From an uncultured archaeon (GTDB taxonomy: Archaea; Aenigmatarchaeota; Aenigmatarchaeia; PWEA01; JAGHBM01): a stretch of 64,000 nucleotides of DNA. Numbering within the stretch: the first letter of the stretch is position 1; each line of letters starts with the position of its first letter. The DNA lies in contig CAZOZN010000003.1 in NCBI GenBank assembly GCA_964584335.1, positions 86,436 to 150,435 on the forward strand, in the 5' to 3' direction. The notes under the pieces were generated by a model, which had not been told where the DNA came from, ran no database searches, and saw only the letters and a list, made by a program, of their open reading frames with translations. The position numbers were made by a program, and so were the translations under genes. Of the stretch, positions 4,869 to 61,072 are shown piece by piece.

Positions 4869-5687
4869 ATGGTAGAATCAGTGGTAAGTCAGGATGTATT
4901 GGATACCCTAAAATCTTTGGGATTGAATTCATACGAGAGGAAACTTTATGTGACCTTGCTTTCAAAAGGAACTTCTAACGCAGGAACTTTGTCAGAGTTA
5001 TCTGGGGTACCGAGGTCTAGAACATATGACGTTCTTGAGAGCCTCGCAGATAAGGGCTTTGTTGTTATTCAGTCTAGCAAGCCTTTAAAGTATGTTGCAG
5101 TGGACCCAGAAGAAGCAATGGAAAGACTAAAATCGAAACACAGAAAAAACTACGATACAATGATAAAAAGAATCGAGAAAGTAAAGAAAGGAAAGACATT
5201 AAGCGAACTGCAAAAATTGTTTAAGAACGGGGTAAAGACAGTTGACCCAACTGAATTTACAGGTGCTTTAAAGGGCAGAAATTCAATGAATCAGCAGCTA
5301 CAAACTCTTATAAGAAAATCTAAAGAGAGCATATATTTGATGACTTCTCTTGAAGGGCTTCAGGAACTAAACGAAAATCATAATAATCTTTTGGAGGATG
5401 CAGCAGGAAGGGGGGTTAAGATAAAAATAGCCGCTCCTTTGAATGATTCGACAATAAATGCTTTAAAGAGCTTAAGGAGTTTTGCTGAATTGAGAGATAT
5501 AAAAGGAACAAACATATCTGGAAGATTCGCGATAGTGGACGGCAAGGAGTTAATATTTGCTCTAACTAAAGACAGTGAAACTCACCCAACCCAAGACTTG
5601 CATCTTTGGTCACAGAGCGACCATGCTGCAGGAGAAGTTTTAGAGCCTTTATTTAAGATGGTTTGGGACAGGTCCAATAAAATTTAA
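4869..5687 (+). CDS. TrmB-family HTH transcriptional regulator
   Basis: N-terminus LGLNSYERKLYVTLLSKGTSNAGTLSELSGVPRSRTYDVLESLADKGFV matches the TrmB winged-helix signature. Confidence 0.6.
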   Translation: MVESVVSQDVLDTLKSLGLNSYERKLYVTLLSKGTSNAGTLSELSGVPRSRTYDVLESLADKGFVVIQSSKPLKYVAVDPEEAMERLKSKHRKNYDTMIKRIEKVKKGKTLSELQKLFKNGVKTVDPTEFTGALKGRNSMNQQLQTLIRKSKESIYLMTSLEGLQELNENHNNLLEDAAGRGVKIKIAAPLNDSTINALKSLRSFAELRDIKGTNISGRFAIVDGKELIFALTKDSETHPTQDLHLWSQSDHAAGEVLEPLFKMVWDRSNKI

Positions 5688-5718
5688 AGTTTGATTTAAG
5701 CCTATTTTTTAGGCATTT

Positions 5719-6915
5719 TTATTTAATTTTGTGCTTTTTTATTAATTTTCCTAATCTTTCTATACCTTTTTCTATTTTATCTTCATCAGCATTGCTAAAG
5801 TTAAGTCTCATTGAATCATGACCAGAGCCGTCAACACAAAATGCAGCACCATGTATATAGGCAACTTTGTTCTTTATTGCTTCAGAAAATAATTTTTCAG
5901 TATCTATTTTTTTTGGTATTTTAACCCATAGAAACATACCACCGTCAGGTTTTTCACATCTACAACCTTCGGGAAAGTGTTTTTTTAATGAATACAACAT
6001 TATATCTCTTTTTTTCTTGTAATTTTTTCTTATTTTTTTAATTTGTTTGTCCATAAAACCCGAGGAAATGTACTCGTTTGACAAGTATTGAGAAAAGATG
6101 TTGGTACAGAGATCAGTGCCTTGTTTTATTATGTTTATTTTTCTTGCAAGTTCTTCTTCTGCAATCATCCATCCCATTCTAAATCCGGGCGCGAAGGTTT
6201 TTGAAAGTGTGCTCATGTATATAACAAGTCCGCTCTTATCCAGACTTTTTATGCTTGGTATTTGTTTACCGGAGAATCTCAATTCCACGTATGGGTCGTC
6301 CTCTATTATAGGTATGTCATACTTTTCGGATATTTCGATTAGATGTTTTCTTCTTTCATATGTCATGGTGACTCCTGCCGGATTATGAAAGTTTGGTATC
6401 GAGTATATCATCTTTACTTTGTTCCTTTCTTCTTTTTTCATTTTCTTTAACTTTTTTTCAAGTTCTTCCGTTTTCATTCCAAAGGAATCAATACCGACAG
6501 TCAAGAATTTCGACTGGTAAATCCTAAAGCTGCATATACCTCCCAGGTAAGTGGGTACTTCAAGGGCTACAAAATCTCCCGGATTTATGAATGTTTTTGT
6601 TACGAGGTCTATTGCCTCTTGGGTACCGTTTGTTATTAAAATATTTTTTTTATTGCATTTTATGCCGAATTTTTTCATTCTTTTAGACAGTGTTTCTCTT
6701 AATTCTACTATACCTTCTGTTATCCCGTATTGTAAGGGGCACGTACCGTATTTTTTTAGTATTTTTTTGCATAGCTTGTCTATTTTTTTTACCGGGAAAG
6801 AATCAGGACTTGGCAGACCACCACCGAAAGATATAATATCTTTCTTGTTGGCCAACTTTAAAAGTTCTCTTATTTCAGAAGCCTTTATCTCATTGGTTCT
6901 TTCAGCAAACCTCAT
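5719..6915 (-). CDS. PLP-dependent aminotransferase, class I/II
   Basis: PLP-lysine motif LSKTFAPGFRMGWM; N-terminal IISFGGGLPSP; 398 aa. Confidence 0.8.
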   Translation of the reverse strand: MRFAERTNEIKASEIRELLKLANKKDIISFGGGLPSPDSFPVKKIDKLCKKILKKYGTCPLQYGITEGIVELRETLSKRMKKFGIKCNKKNILITNGTQEAIDLVTKTFINPGDFVALEVPTYLGGICSFRIYQSKFLTVGIDSFGMKTEELEKKLKKMKKEERNKVKMIYSIPNFHNPAGVTMTYERRKHLIEISEKYDIPIIEDDPYVELRFSGKQIPSIKSLDKSGLVIYMSTLSKTFAPGFRMGWMIAEEELARKINIIKQGTDLCTNIFSQYLSNEYISSGFMDKQIKKIRKNYKKKRDIMLYSLKKHFPEGCRCEKPDGGMFLWVKIPKKIDTEKLFSEAIKNKVAYIHGAAFCVDGSGHDSMRLNFSNADEDKIEKGIERLGKLIKKHKIK

Positions 6916-40526: not shown

Positions 40527-41798
40527 ATGCCGAAGCTCAAAAGAACTCTTGGCCTGTTTGAATCAAGCGTTTACGGTATTGGTCTTATTCTAGGTGCTGG
40601 AATTTATGTTCTTATAGGAAAGTCCGCAGCCATAACTGGAAACTCTCTTTGGTTTTCTTTCCTCTTGACAGCAATTATAGCATCTTTTACAGGGCTTAGT
40701 TATGCAGAACTTTCTTCCATGTTTCCGAAATCTGCTGCTGCATATTTTTATGTTAAAAATGCTTTCAAAGAAAATTATCTTCCTTTTGTGGTCTCTTGGT
40801 TGATAATATTTACTCAGGTTTTTACTGGATCCGCAGTAGCTCTTGGTTTTTCTGAATATTTTCAGGGTTTTGTTGGTATAGAATCTCCTATATTATGGGC
40901 AATTCTTCTGATAGTAGGCCTTTCATTGCTGAATTTTTATGGTATAAAGGAATCAGCAAAATTAAACGTTATTTTTACCCTGATAGAAGCATTGGGTCTA
41001 GTTTTTATAATTTATCTGGGTTTGGGATACATAGGCTCTGTAAATTATTTTGAAATGCCTAATGGAATAGGGGGAGTTTTTACAGGGGCCGGTCTCATAT
41101 TTTTTGCCTATCTGGGATTTCAGGAAATTGCCAACATTACAGAGGAAACCAAAGATGCAACCAAGAACATACCCATTGCCATAATAATTTCCATTATTGT
41201 AACAACAGTACTATACGTTCTGGTAGCTATTTCTGTTGTCAGCATAGTTCCATGGCAGACGCTTGGTGAGGCAGAAGCACCGCTTACATTTGTCGCGGAA
41301 TCAGCAATGCCCAATTCTTCATTACTTTTGACAATAATAGCGCTTTTTGCTACTCTTAATACAGTTTTGATTACGTTAATAGTGGCTTCAAGGATGATTT
41401 ATGGAGTTTCCAGAGACACTAAAATTTTCAAGACACTTTCAAAAGTTCATAAAAAGAGAAGAACACCGTGGGTTGCCGTATTAGTAACGATGTTTCTTGT
41501 TTCGGGATTCACCCTTCTAGGAGAAATAAAACTGGTAGCATTGATAGCGGATGTTGGTTCCTTTATGATATTCATGGTTGTAAATATTTCTCTAATAGTT
41601 CTTAGGTACAAGAAACCCAACCTCAAAAGACCTTTTAAGGTACCTCTTTCAATAGGACGCATGCCTATTATTCCTCTTCTTGGTTTAGTTTCATGCTTCC
41701 TAATGATTCTACATTTTGAATTTTACATAATATTGTCAGGTATTTTAATAGTTGGCACAGGTTTTCTTGTTTTTTATCTTAAAGATAAGTTCACGTGA
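40527..41798 (+). CDS. APC-family amino acid permease
   Basis: 12 TM; typical N-terminus LGLFESSVYGIGLILGAGIYVLIG. Confidence 0.75.
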   Translation: MPKLKRTLGLFESSVYGIGLILGAGIYVLIGKSAAITGNSLWFSFLLTAIIASFTGLSYAELSSMFPKSAAAYFYVKNAFKENYLPFVVSWLIIFTQVFTGSAVALGFSEYFQGFVGIESPILWAILLIVGLSLLNFYGIKESAKLNVIFTLIEALGLVFIIYLGLGYIGSVNYFEMPNGIGGVFTGAGLIFFAYLGFQEIANITEETKDATKNIPIAIIISIIVTTVLYVLVAISVVSIVPWQTLGEAEAPLTFVAESAMPNSSLLLTIIALFATLNTVLITLIVASRMIYGVSRDTKIFKTLSKVHKKRRTPWVAVLVTMFLVSGFTLLGEIKLVALIADVGSFMIFMVVNISLIVLRYKKPNLKRPFKVPLSIGRMPIIPLLGLVSCFLMILHFEFYIILSGILIVGTGFLVFYLKDKFT

Positions 41799-41886
41799 TT
41801 CACGCAGAGAGACAAAAAGAGTGACATTTGTATTCTTAAGTAACGAAAACTTTATAAATAGGGAACTACAAAAAAATATTACAATC

Positions 41887-41979
41887 AGGTAATTTGGGCA
41901 TTACCTTCACGTCTTCACTTCAAATTTTGGGCAATTTGAAGTTGAGTGACACACACTAATTTTTGGGCGTTATTAGTGT
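41887..41979 (+). promoter_or_regulatory. three consecutive hairpins with a conserved TTGGGC loop in the ftsZ upstream region
   Basis: AGGTAAT-ttgggc-ATTACCT (41887-41906), CTTCAAATT-ttgggc-AATTTGAAG (41918-41941), ACACTAAT-ttttgggcgtt-ATTAGTGT (41953-41979); TATA-like TTTATAAATA at 41851-41860. Confidence 0.45.
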
Positions 41980-42082
41980 TAGATATTTTTAGGCTTCTAA
42001 ACAGAGATAGTTTTTACTATCTAAAAAACATTTGGATATAAAAAAATATATGTTGTAGTATATAAATTGAGGTGGATTATAT

Positions 42083-43207
42083 ATGGATTCTATGATTCAA
42101 AAAGCATTTGAAAAAACTTTTAATCAGGGAGATGAAAGTCAAAAAAGTCTTAATCAAGGGTTTGACACGAGAAAAATTGGTGAGGAATTCGACATAGATT
42201 TTCATCAAGCAAGAATTTGTGTTATAGGAGCAGGGGGCGGAGGAAACAATACTGTTACTGCTCTTACTGAAATGGGTATAGAAGGAGCACAAACTATTGC
42301 TGTAAATACTGATGCAAAGCATCTAAGCGTGACAAAAGCTGATAAAAAGCTTTTGATAGGAAGAGATACTACTAGAGGTTTGGGTGCAGGCGGTTATCCC
42401 GGAATAGGTAAAAAAGCAACCGAGGAATCAAAAAAAGAATTAAAAGAGTTGCTTGACGGTGTGGATATGATTTTTATTACCTGTGGTCTGGGCGGCGGAA
42501 CTGGAACCGGATCCGCTCCAGTAATAGCTGAAATAGCTAAGAGCATGGGTGCGATAGTAATAGGAACTGTTACAATGCCTTTTAAAATGGAAGGTACCAG
42601 AATTCATAAAGCTGAAGAAGGTCTTACGGAACTTAGAAGAGTGACAGACACTGTTATAGTAATAGAAAACCAGAAGTTGTTGAAGTACGCAGGAGACCTT
42701 CCTCTAAAACAGGCTTTTGCAGTAGCAGATGAATTAATATCGACTATGATAAAAGGAATCACCGAAACTATAACACAACCTTCGTTGGTTAACTTAGATT
42801 ATGCAGACGTAAAGGCGATAATGCATAGCGGAGGAGTTGCTGCAATAGGAGTCGGTCAAGCAGATTCTTCCGAGAGAGCTAAAGAAGCAATAGAGAGTGC
42901 TCTAAAACACCCTCTACTTGAGATGGAAGTTAGCGGTGCAAACGGCGCCATAGTCCAGATAATAGGAGGAGACGACTTGAAGCTGGATGAAATAAACACC
43001 ATAGGAGAAACGGTTTATAAGAGAATGAATCCTGAAGCACAGGTTATATGGGGTGCTCGTGTTCTTCCTGAATATGCGGGAAAGATACATGTAATAACCA
43101 TAATAACTGGTGTAAAGAGCCCTTACATACTAGGACCGGTTCAGAAAGAAAATTTGGGAAGCGAAGAAAATGCAACACACCAACTCGGAATACCTATGGT
43201 AAAATGA
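42083..43207 (+). CDS. ftsZ: cell division protein FtsZ
   Basis: GAGGGGNN and GLGGGTGTG tubulin/FtsZ signatures. Confidence 0.9.
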   Translation: MDSMIQKAFEKTFNQGDESQKSLNQGFDTRKIGEEFDIDFHQARICVIGAGGGGNNTVTALTEMGIEGAQTIAVNTDAKHLSVTKADKKLLIGRDTTRGLGAGGYPGIGKKATEESKKELKELLDGVDMIFITCGLGGGTGTGSAPVIAEIAKSMGAIVIGTVTMPFKMEGTRIHKAEEGLTELRRVTDTVIVIENQKLLKYAGDLPLKQAFAVADELISTMIKGITETITQPSLVNLDYADVKAIMHSGGVAAIGVGQADSSERAKEAIESALKHPLLEMEVSGANGAIVQIIGGDDLKLDEINTIGETVYKRMNPEAQVIWGARVLPEYAGKIHVITIITGVKSPYILGPVQKENLGSEENATHQLGIPMVK

Positions 43208-43223
43208 GATATTGTTTAATAAA

Positions 43224-43358
43224 TACACCCCCACACTGGGAAGGACGGTAGGGATTTTCTCACCGTCCAACCCACACCCCCCACATTACGGTCATTCGAT
43301 GACACACCCCCACACACTGGGAAGGGCGGGCAACGGTAATTATTTTTCCGCCCTTTCC
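43224..43358. repeat. C-rich direct repeat plus GC-rich hairpin module between convergent genes
   Basis: ACACCCCCACAC(AC)TGGGAAGGRCGG at 43225-43248 and 43304-43329, each running into a hairpin (GGACGGT/ACCGTCC at 43243-43268; 11-bp stem at 43319-43358). Confidence 0.5.
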
Positions 43359-43489
43359 TAATTCCCCCAAAGGCTAAAACATGTACAATAAAATATCAAA
43401 ATTAAAAAGAAAGGTATCCGAGAGAGTTATGGTTGTAGCAGGAGCTTTATCTATATTTATTGCCATAGTGCTTTGAATTAATATGCTGC

Positions 43490-60947: not shown

Positions 60948-61072
60948 ATGGTAGCGGGGGGTGGATTTGAACCACCGACCTCAGGGTTATGAGCCCTGCG
61001 AGCATTCTGTTTACACCCAGGTTTTATGAACCAAGGAAGTCTCCAGGCTGCTCCACCCCGCTATTTAGATAT
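60948..61072 (-). tRNA. tRNA-Met: tRNA-Met (CAU), initiator-like, with a ~37-nt non-canonical intron in the D-loop
   Basis: Exons read AGCGGGGUGGAGCAGCCUGG ... GCUCG CAGGG CUCAUAA CCCUG AGGUC GGUGG UUCAAAU CCACC (C) CCCCGCU A CCA. A1:U72 and three G:C pairs at 29-31/39-41 mark it as an initiator. The insert AGACTTCCTTGGTTCATAAAACCTGGGTGTAAACAG lies between G19 and the 3' D-stem strand. A 7-C run gives one extra C at the T-stem/acceptor junction. Confidence 0.75.

Follow-up and report, generated by a model that had tools for sequence, protein, structure and literature searches.

A deeply conserved array of hairpins with a shared loop motif upstream of ftsZ in DPANN archaea

The stretch of DNA analyzed here (hereafter the window) comprises 64 kb of contig CAZOZN010000003.1, from an uncultured archaeon whose genome is expected to measure about 0.8 Mb (size taken from the complete relative CP070662.1). 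The window has a G+C content of 34% and carries the division gene ftsZ. This work concerns the gap that precedes ftsZ on the + strand, from the stop codon of a permease gene (41798) to the ATG of ftsZ (42083), and in which three perfect hairpins were found. The gap, given as 285 bp in a preliminary description of the locus, does exist but measures 284 bp. It is identical in two further assemblies of the same species, and an identical FtsZ protein was found on metagenome contigs. The genomes closest to the window are metagenome-assembled genomes (MAGs) of Aenigmatarchaeota, which belong to the DPANN archaea, i.e., ultra-small, mostly symbiotic and largely uncultured organisms. The locus has the following features:

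40527-41798, + strand: amino-acid permease gene, the upstream neighbor of ftsZ.
41819-41850, + strand: block GAGTGACATTTGTATTCTTAAGTAACGAAAAC before the distal promoter, with almost all columns invariant in the window and in loci L003-L008; probably a transcription-factor site plus a TFB-recognition element (BRE).
41844-41861, + strand: predicted distal promoter P1, made of a BRE-like CGAAAAC followed by a TATA box (41851-41860), invariant in seven genomes.
41868-41879, + strand: A/T-rich promoter-proximal element ACAAAAAAATAT, whose AA.AAATA core is kept in relatives.
41887-41906, + strand: hairpin 1, 7-bp stem AGGTAAT/ATTACCT, loop TTGGGC (41894-41899).
41917-41942, + strand: hairpin 2, 10-bp stem ACTTCAAATT/AATTTGAAGT with 100% complementary arms, loop TTGGGC (41927-41932).
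41953-41979, + strand: hairpin 3, 8-bp stem ACACTAAT/ATTAGTGT, 11-nt loop TTTTGGGCGTT with TTGGGC inside (41963-41968).
41986-42001, + strand: T-rich tract (T5, 41986-41990) followed by a TTCTAAA box (41995-42001); TTCT(A/T)A(A/G) is found after the array in many Aenigmatarchaeota loci.
42005-42022, + strand: hairpin 4 or palindrome AGATAGT-TTTT-ACTATCT, abutting the TATA-like box of P2.
42021-42051, + strand: proximal promoter-like block P2, CTAAAAAACATTTGG then TATAAAAAAATAT, recognized by its sequence conservation.
42069-42075, + strand: Shine-Dalgarno (SD) sequence GAGGTGG, 7 nt before the ATG.
42083-43207, + strand: ftsZ, encoding a protein of 374 aa with Pfam Tubulin and FtsZ_C domains.

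The stems of hairpins 1 to 3 are unrelated in sequence and TTGGGC is common to their three loops. This combination of different stems with an identical TTGGGC, already noticed in the preliminary description, was borne out by repeat search, RNA folding and a covariance model, all three hairpins being recovered by the first two approaches. The hairpins are therefore real, but their stems (7, 10 and 8 bp) are slightly longer than initially quoted and the loop of hairpin 3 reaches 11 nt. The segment 41881-41992 (112 nt) folds at -25.9 kcal/mol (z = -3.3), a value equaled by none of 200 shuffled sequences in RNA folding. The window contains 15 copies of TTGGGC on both strands, compared to 23.8 expected. 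Three of them are grouped within 75 nt on the same strand, each closed by a stem of 7-10 bp. Among the other 12 copies, a perfect stem never exceeds 3 bp, and two copies have 6-bp stems including G-T pairs. In the 64-kb window, the hairpin covariance model retrieved these three sites alone at E < 1, and the search for other TTGGGC hairpins that had been proposed initially found none. Since there is no further copy in the window, the array was not considered as a dispersed repeat similar to repetitive extragenic palindromes (REP) or to miniature inverted-repeat transposable elements (MITE).

The comparison with 80 related ftsZ loci from genomes of the Genome Taxonomy Database (loci are cited by their L numbers) revealed a wide distribution of such arrays. 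They are located directly before ftsZ in Aenigmatarchaeota, in Nanohaloarchaeota/Asbonarchaeaceae, in Woesearchaeota/Nanoarchaeota and in one Micrarchaeota MAG. In the closest relatives, whose FtsZ proteins are 90-62% identical, TTGGGC(A/G) is present two to six times upstream of ftsZ, whereas the upstream gene differs. At a larger scale, the genes upstream of ftsZ vary between lineages and are sometimes divergent, while the array is kept. The TTGGGC class is also found in Nanohaloarchaeota and Asbonarchaeaceae. Other lineages harbor other loop words: (i) TCGGGCA or TCGGACA, CTGGACA, and TTGGGGG(A), (ii) TTGGCG(A) in Woesearchaeota/Nanoarchaeota and in some Aenigmatarchaeota, (iii) TTGGCT or GTGGCA in five MAGs labelled Methanosarcinales, and (iv) TTGGACTTC in a Micrarchaeota MAG. 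The generic motif across lineages is YUGG(N)CR and the recurrent order is P1, then, about 45 nt on, two to six sense copies of YUGG(N)CR, the TTCTAAA box, P2, the SD sequence and ftsZ. An unbiased count of repeated GC-containing 5-mers before ftsZ placed TGGGC first (17 loci), followed by TTGGG, GGGCA, TGGAC, TTGGC, TGGCG and TGGGG. Overall, the conservation of the motif in related genomes, which the preliminary description left to be verified, is clear: dozens of genomes, distributed over several DPANN phyla, carry it before ftsZ.

No conserved neighboring gene or regulator was found beside ftsZ in the loci compared, the recurring neighbors being a nitroreductase-like gene (22 loci) and GatC (11 loci). 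The element therefore belongs to ftsZ, the only gene that constantly accompanies it. The sequence analyzed around ftsZ (0.49 Mb) comprises 56 motif clusters on the sense strand upstream of this gene and 37 clusters elsewhere; the latter include minus-strand TGGGG copies that correspond to a separate C-rich array located after ftsZ. The hairpin model of class A (TGGGC) does not detect the other loop classes. Metagenome contigs carrying three TTGGGCR copies provided at least 120 loci; all those listed are unrelated tandem repeats or high-GC sequences and none has FtsZ. The same scan of viral contigs also gave at least 120 loci, none of those listed having FtsZ; five possible hairpin arrays were flagged among the matches listed, and the two that were inspected (L277 and L289) are unrelated.

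The orientation of the motif is almost strictly conserved. Up to 400 nt upstream of ftsZ, the five motif classes show sense:antisense counts of 71:0, 10:1, 32:0, 14:1 and 23:0, i.e., 150:2 in total. Furthermore, the motif is strongly associated with hairpins (stem of at least 5 bp): depending on the class, this concerns 46-90% of the copies upstream of ftsZ compared to 0-14% elsewhere. For TGGGC, 44 of the 71 upstream copies (62%) have a flanking stem of at least 5 bp compared to 12 of the 86 copies found elsewhere in the same loci (Fisher p = 5e-10), and the stem enrichment of the other classes is supported by p values from 2e-5 to 3e-4. When all 69 distinct class-A copies were tested, unselected and in one fixed register, 59.6% of cells were paired (44.4% in shuffles) and the covariation score was 0.434 (0.222 in shuffles), neither value being reached by any of 500 shuffles; register 0 outscores every slid register. 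TGGGC is preceded by T in 61 of 71 copies and followed by A in 47 and by G in 20; of the 69 class-A copies, 40 have a U-A closing pair and 17 a U.G one. According to these counts of flanking bases, the usual unit consists either of a pentaloop (UGGGC) with a U-A or U.G closing pair or of a hexaloop (UUGGGC).

By contrast with the loops, the stems differ both between copies of one genome and between genomes. The ortholog of hairpin 1 in L004 and L005 has the stem CTAGATA/TATCTAG with the motif retained, the one of hairpin 2 in L006 and L007 has the stem CTTCG/CGAAG, and the one of hairpin 3 has the stem ACTCTAATT/AATTAGAGT in L003 and AGAGTTTA/TAAACTCT in L006-L008. Both arms change together between orthologs, as in the replacement of GGTAAT/ATTACC by CTAGATA/TATCTAG or of CAAATT/AATTTG by CG/CG. 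The P1 region is nearly invariant in the seven genomes (the window and L003-L008) in which the stems vary in this way. In L068, L072, L073 and L082, the first hairpin, as read from the sequence, includes two or three G.U pairs that exist on the sense strand only. The distance between copies ranges from 8 to 63 nt (83 spacings), with no helical phasing (Rayleigh p > 0.2 for periods of 9-12 nt). Our main argument is the diversity of stems within a genome: because of it, the copies cannot be the sites of one DNA-binding protein that reads a palindrome. The initial proposal of a selection acting on a structure with a recognized loop, rather than on a DNA palindrome, is thus supported by the sense-only orientation of the motif, its location in hairpin loops and the variation of the stems over dozens of genomes.

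The array is framed by two promoter-like regions. The TATA-like element previously reported at 41851-41860 is present as stated and reads TTTATAAATA. In most lineages, a TATA box equivalent to that of P1 precedes the ATG by 226-340 nt and the first motif copy by about 45 nt. According to the usual spacing between TATA box and start in archaea, the P1 start is predicted around 41878-41884. For P2, TTAAAAA(G)CATTTCG and, 5-8 nt further, AAAATATAT are located 58-154 nt before the ATG across Aenigmatarchaeota and in one Micrarchaeota MAG, and Nanohaloarchaeota carry a TATA-like box at the place of P2. The same family of A/T-rich 13-mers recurs at equal distance from the TATA or TATA-like box in P1 and P2. 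From these sequences, P2 would act as a promoter, with a start predicted around 42050 according to the usual archaeal geometry. Since the P2 block lies between the hairpins and ftsZ, a transcription start site downstream of 41980, which the preliminary description regarded as contrary to its proposal, probably exists besides the one of P1. The P2 block (42021-42051; L003-L047) is also far more conserved than a TATA box alone would require, and its CATTTCG sequence may be an operator lying after the TATA box and ahead of the start site. CATTTCG pairs with a complement located upstream in L013, L015 and L018, G.U pairs being formed on the sense strand.

Between the array and P2, the T-rich tract and the TTCTAAA sequence would be either a weak termination signal or a conserved box. 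Only 6 of 32 loci have a run of at least five T there, and runs do not exceed three T in L070, L075 and L077, which are GC-richer loci of Nanohaloarchaeota; therefore, a conserved oligo-T terminator is lacking. The arms of hairpin 4 differ in other lineages but stay complementary (GATAGG/CCTATC, AAGGTAT/ATACCTT, AAGGTTTC/GAAACCTT and CTAAAC/GTTTAG). As there is one copy of it per genome, an RNA hairpin and a palindromic DNA site are indistinguishable in this case. In the window, the majority of the predicted genes are devoid of an SD sequence and show a TATA-like box 27-41 nt ahead of their ATG, suggesting that this organism mainly uses leaderless mRNAs. An SD sequence is present at ftsZ and at about a dozen other genes of the window. 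Since most genes are devoid of it, ftsZ stands out as having a leader. An additional conserved hairpin, ACATGTGC-NNGG-CACATAC, is located between P2 and the SD sequence in L015, L016, L018, L020, L022, L026, L029 and L041, and displays a YGGC-type loop near the ribosome-binding site.

Taken as a whole, the array is an undescribed and deeply conserved regulatory element of ftsZ in DPANN archaea. We propose, with a probability of about 0.5, that the three hairpins of the window represent one copy of a conserved RNA element that is transcribed from P1, linked in cis to ftsZ and continued as a long leader. An RNA leader starting at P1 is suggested by (i) the strand bias, (ii) the display of loops on arbitrary stems, (iii) the position after the best-conserved promoter, (iv) the link with ftsZ and (v) the lack of a conserved terminator. 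It is from these sequence features, in which the comparison of genomes gives good support, that we infer a function of the array at the RNA level.

According to this proposal, P1, a strong promoter, would start transcription a few nucleotides before hairpin 1 and the transcript would show two to six copies of YUGG(N)CR (here UUGGGC), mostly in loops of 5-6 nt closed by U-A or U.G and carried by arbitrary stems. The functional part would be the loops and not the stems, the whole array providing a multivalent docking platform for a sequence-specific factor acting in trans. This factor would most likely be a dedicated RNA-binding protein, whose specificity would have drifted by lineage (UUGGGC, UCGGGC, CUGGAC, UUGGCG, UUGGGGG). 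Indeed, the change of loop word between fairly close lineages argues for a dedicated partner that co-evolves rather than for a universal machinery such as the ribosome. Since most lineages are devoid of an oligo-T terminator between the array and ftsZ, the P1 transcript would most likely run on into ftsZ as a leader of about 200 nt, P2 probably also yielding an mRNA with a short leader that bypasses the array. The occupancy of the array would then set the FtsZ output from the long transcript, through stability, read-through or translation. The sequences directly show the potential for structure, the conservation, the strand bias, the link with ftsZ and the promoter-like elements; the transcription of the region, the kind and identity of the partner and the direction of the regulation are proposals drawn from them. 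More tentatively, the YUGG(N)CR array could serve as an RNA operator, read by a regulator that would co-evolve with each lineage and determine how much FtsZ is produced. In UUGGGC lineages, this operator may work together with the CCCCCA array of the ftsZ 3′ flank that is presented below.

Several points weigh against this explanation. Both the P1 start site and the read-through are predictions, and the presence of a well-formed P2 means that ftsZ does not need P1, which would also fit a small RNA or an upstream element acting at the DNA level. In the ftsZ mRNA, no complementary site matching the loop class was found, and the counts of internal G.U versus A.C mismatches in class-A stems favor neither strand. 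Furthermore, about 40-50% of the motif copies have no clear hairpin, and some lineages (L008, L060, L040, L031, L047) carry tandem unstructured copies 9-12 nt apart. Lastly, the presence of arrays away from ftsZ was judged on about 0.5 Mb of DPANN sequence around ftsZ.

A first alternative, rather unlikely in our opinion, is that P1 drives a separate small RNA of about 110 nt (approximately 41881-41995) ending at the T-rich tract/TTCTAAA, ftsZ being transcribed from P2 only. In trans, such an RNA would either capture a protein binding YUGG(N)CR, as a decoy or sponge comparable to CsrB and RsmZ for CsrA, or regulate through seed sequences. P1 and P2 do both look complete, with the same A/T-rich element equally distant from the TATA box, and the T5 run of the window directly follows hairpin 3, a T-rich TTTCT(A)AA box being found after the array in many lineages. 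This box resembles the classical TTTTTYT termination signal of archaea. The hairpin with a YGGC loop located between P2 and the SD sequence (L015, L016, L020, L022, L026, L029, L041) could even be the real target, with which the decoys would compete. However, the scarcity of T runs reported above (at least five T in only 6 of 32 loci, none longer than three T in L070, L075 and L077) does not fit a terminated transcript, and such a strict position and orientation beside ftsZ across phyla would be unusual for an RNA acting purely in trans. Moreover, the ftsZ mRNA contains no complementary target.

According to a second alternative, which we regard as improbable, the TGG(N)C boxes are duplex sites for a transcription factor, for example a ribbon-helix-helix (RHH) regulator such as CdrS, that would either act on P2, positively or negatively, at a distance of 40-190 bp upstream, or stop the elongation started at P1, the hairpins being incidental. 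The RHH protein CdrS of Haloferax volcanii recognizes a motif located 50 nt upstream of the start site of ftsZ1, and most of its binding sites are found 41-110 nt upstream (PMC8406309). The position of the array relative to P2 appears comparable, as the copies are located upstream of a core promoter, about 40-190 nt before the predicted P2 start. The tandem unstructured copies 9-12 nt apart, the lineage-specific drift of a short motif, which is typical of transcription-factor sites, and the lack of strand signal in the G.U versus A.C counts would also be in agreement with DNA operators. However, this alternative explains neither the placement of 46-90% of the copies in loops (stem of at least 5 bp) compared to 0-14% elsewhere, nor the differences of stems within a genome with a kept complementarity. 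Instead of phased duplex repeats devoid of flanking complementarity, we found no helical phasing in the 83 spacings (Rayleigh p > 0.2) and a strong enrichment of complementarity. The one-stranded orientation (150:2), the location of the array downstream of P1, the best-conserved promoter, and the absence of any RHH gene adjoining ftsZ here also argue against it.

Finally, a structure without partner or due to chance (generic stabilizer or terminator, REP- or MITE-like repeat, or long-loop G-quadruplex formed by GGG runs) is very improbable and largely refuted by the conservation pattern: although the hairpins are short and AT-rich, and three GGG runs accompany the one at 41861-41863 as well as C5 runs in the ftsZ 3′ flank, it is the loop sequence and not the stems that is kept across phyla, the element is not dispersed (no further copy in 64 kb), the scan for terminators gave no terminator-like hit on the + strand, the gene preceding the array varies and is divergent in some cases, and the TGGAC and TGGCG classes, which have GG runs only, argue against a general G-quadruplex.

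The array was also compared with known elements. At gathering score, Rfam 15 detected only one tRNA in the whole window. In 41700-42200, with E values up to 10, it gave only matches at chance level (18.5 bits at most), and in 20 related loci it detected tRNAs only, none of them upstream of ftsZ. Literature searches on ftsZ leaders, on hairpins and on structured RNAs of DPANN archaea provided no description of this element. Most other candidates were rejected from the features of the locus. For an archaeal H/ACA guide RNA, the stems have 7-10 continuous pairs with neither internal loop nor tandem G.A pairs, and there is no ACA box at the expected place after hairpins 1 and 3. An intrinsic terminator of the upstream gene was discarded since there is no + strand terminator in 41500-42400, the stems are AT-rich and the array is kept next to differing or divergent upstream genes. 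A riboswitch was discarded as well, because of a copy number of 2-6 and of a conservation limited to 5-7 nt per unit that change with the lineage, without any fixed multi-helix aptamer. As regards a replication origin, the non-conservation of the stems is the opposite of what is found in the repeats of origin recognition boxes, and no orc1/cdc6 was present among the neighbors seen; over the 64 kb of the window, the GC skew follows gene orientation with no clear switch at 41.9 kb. A hidden small open reading frame (ORF) is not supported either, as the gap contains only non-ATG ORFs of 21-46 aa and the indels found among relatives do not seem to keep the frame. The pairing of the 5′ end of the leader with the region preceding the SD sequence, proposed by the minimum free energy fold, is not conserved in relatives, as judged from an alignment by eye. 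Mimicry of a tRNA anticodon loop or D-loop or of an SD sequence would fit poorly with loop sizes and positions.

The array shows similarities with several regulatory systems without being a member of any of them, as it is devoid of the defining sequence features of CsrA-bound RNAs, iron-responsive elements (IREs), TRAP leaders and small RNAs with multiple seeds. The RNAs bound by CsrA/RsmA (CsrB, RsmZ and mRNA leaders) also contain a short G-rich motif in variable copy number, mostly in loops carried by unrelated stems and partly in linkers, and form a multivalent platform for one RNA-binding protein, either in an mRNA leader or as a decoy. However, their motif is A(N)GGA instead of YUGG(N)CR and their hosts are bacteria instead of archaea, whereas the present array is fixed beside one gene, ftsZ. 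In the window, the loops are UUGGGC and no motif copy overlaps the SD sequence; GGA is found only in the CUGGACA and UCGGACA lineages. We know of no CsrA homolog in archaea. The IREs of animals, bound by iron regulatory proteins, likewise combine variable stems with a conserved hexaloop that is recognized, in one or several copies in untranslated regions (five in the 3′ untranslated region of the transferrin receptor). They are eukaryotic and unrelated in sequence, with a CAGUGN loop and a bulged C five pairs below, whereas the array combines UUGGGC loops with perfect stems devoid of bulges. In staphylococcal RNAIII and Rsa small RNAs, one short motif is also repeated in several hairpin loops of one RNA. 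These loops are C-rich (UCCC) and pair with SD sequences, while those of the array are G-rich and have no partner site in the ftsZ mRNA nor in the C-rich 3′ flank. In the trp leader of Bacillus, many close (G/U)AG repeats of the 5′ leader enable one multimeric protein, the trp RNA-binding attenuation protein (TRAP), to decide on read-through and translation. The TRAP sites are single-stranded triplets separated by regular spacers of 2-3 nt, whereas the spacers are 8-63 nt here and most copies are in loops. Lastly, CdrS/CdrL of Haloarchaea and aCcr1 of Sulfolobales are dedicated to the regulation of archaeal division genes, CdrS acting upstream of ftsZ1 (PMC8406309). They recognize a symmetric motif of duplex DNA, whereas the present repeats are strand-specific, unphased and mostly in loops, and no cdrS-like gene is located beside ftsZ.

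We found nothing in the literature on the control of division timing in DPANN archaea. To our knowledge, the sole regulators of archaeal division that have been described are the DNA-binding RHH proteins of Haloarchaea and Sulfolobales. If the array really is an RNA operator, no post-transcriptional control of archaeal cell division would have been described before it, and its origin would date back to the ancestor of a large part of the DPANN radiation. The very short list of archaeal cis-regulatory RNAs would also gain a new class, with no match in Rfam. The array could be used as a bait for its regulator, the motif classes providing a natural co-variation test for candidate proteins, and the element could mark the regulation of ftsZ in metatranscriptomes.

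Other repeats were detected around the hairpins. The direct repeat TTCAC-N-TTCAC is present at 41790-41803 and at 41906-41919, and the octamer GAGTGACA at 41819-41826 and at 41944-41951, so that both sequences occur in the same order before P1 and within the hairpin region. GAGTGACA is found three times in the window compared to 0.8 expected, and the TTCAC...TTCAC located between hairpins 1 and 2 is kept in L004-L007.

A second repeat array is located in the 3′ flank of ftsZ (43208-43380, + strand). It contains four copies of CCCCCA (43228, 43278, 43307 and 43364) out of the 10 found in the window. Most of these 3′-flank copies read ACACCCCCACAC, are single-stranded and flank two GC-rich hairpins (GGGAAGGRCGG...CCGYCC). 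A C-rich array is also present after the ftsZ stop codon in L003-L010, L012, L059, L063, L065, L070, L075 and L077. The lineages that have it carry TTGGGC as 5′ motif and belong to both Aenigmatarchaeota and Nanohaloarchaeota; L016, L023 and L033 are devoid of it. The duplex energies between the 5′ array and the C-rich 3′ flank are no better than those of shuffled sequences. In L004 and L005, the unit GTCATTCGATGAC-ACACCCCCACACAC-TGGGAAGGGCGG is duplicated two or three times 3′ of ftsZ; the run of N present in this repeat region in L005 suggests a collapse of the assembly at the repeat. Further downstream, the 31-aa product of a conserved micro-ORF (43381-43476, + strand), MYNKISKLKRKVSERVMVVAGALSIFIAIVL, has a basic N-terminus and, at its C-terminus, a hydrophobic helix; L003-L010 and L012 possess homologs at the equivalent position. 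No informative Pfam match was obtained for the small ORFs located after ftsZ; the product of the micro-ORF could be a small membrane protein linked to division.

Two observations concern tRNA genes. In a gene for a tRNA with a CAU anticodon (about 60950-61061, - strand), the D-arm and the anticodon stem are separated by an insertion of about 40 nt, at a position that is non-canonical for an intron; this gene is missed by ARAGORN and detected by Rfam with only 32.6 bits. In the Aenigmatarchaeota MAG L010, three clustered tRNA genes of 106-115 nt, presumably with introns, are located downstream of ftsZ (4975-6051, - strand).

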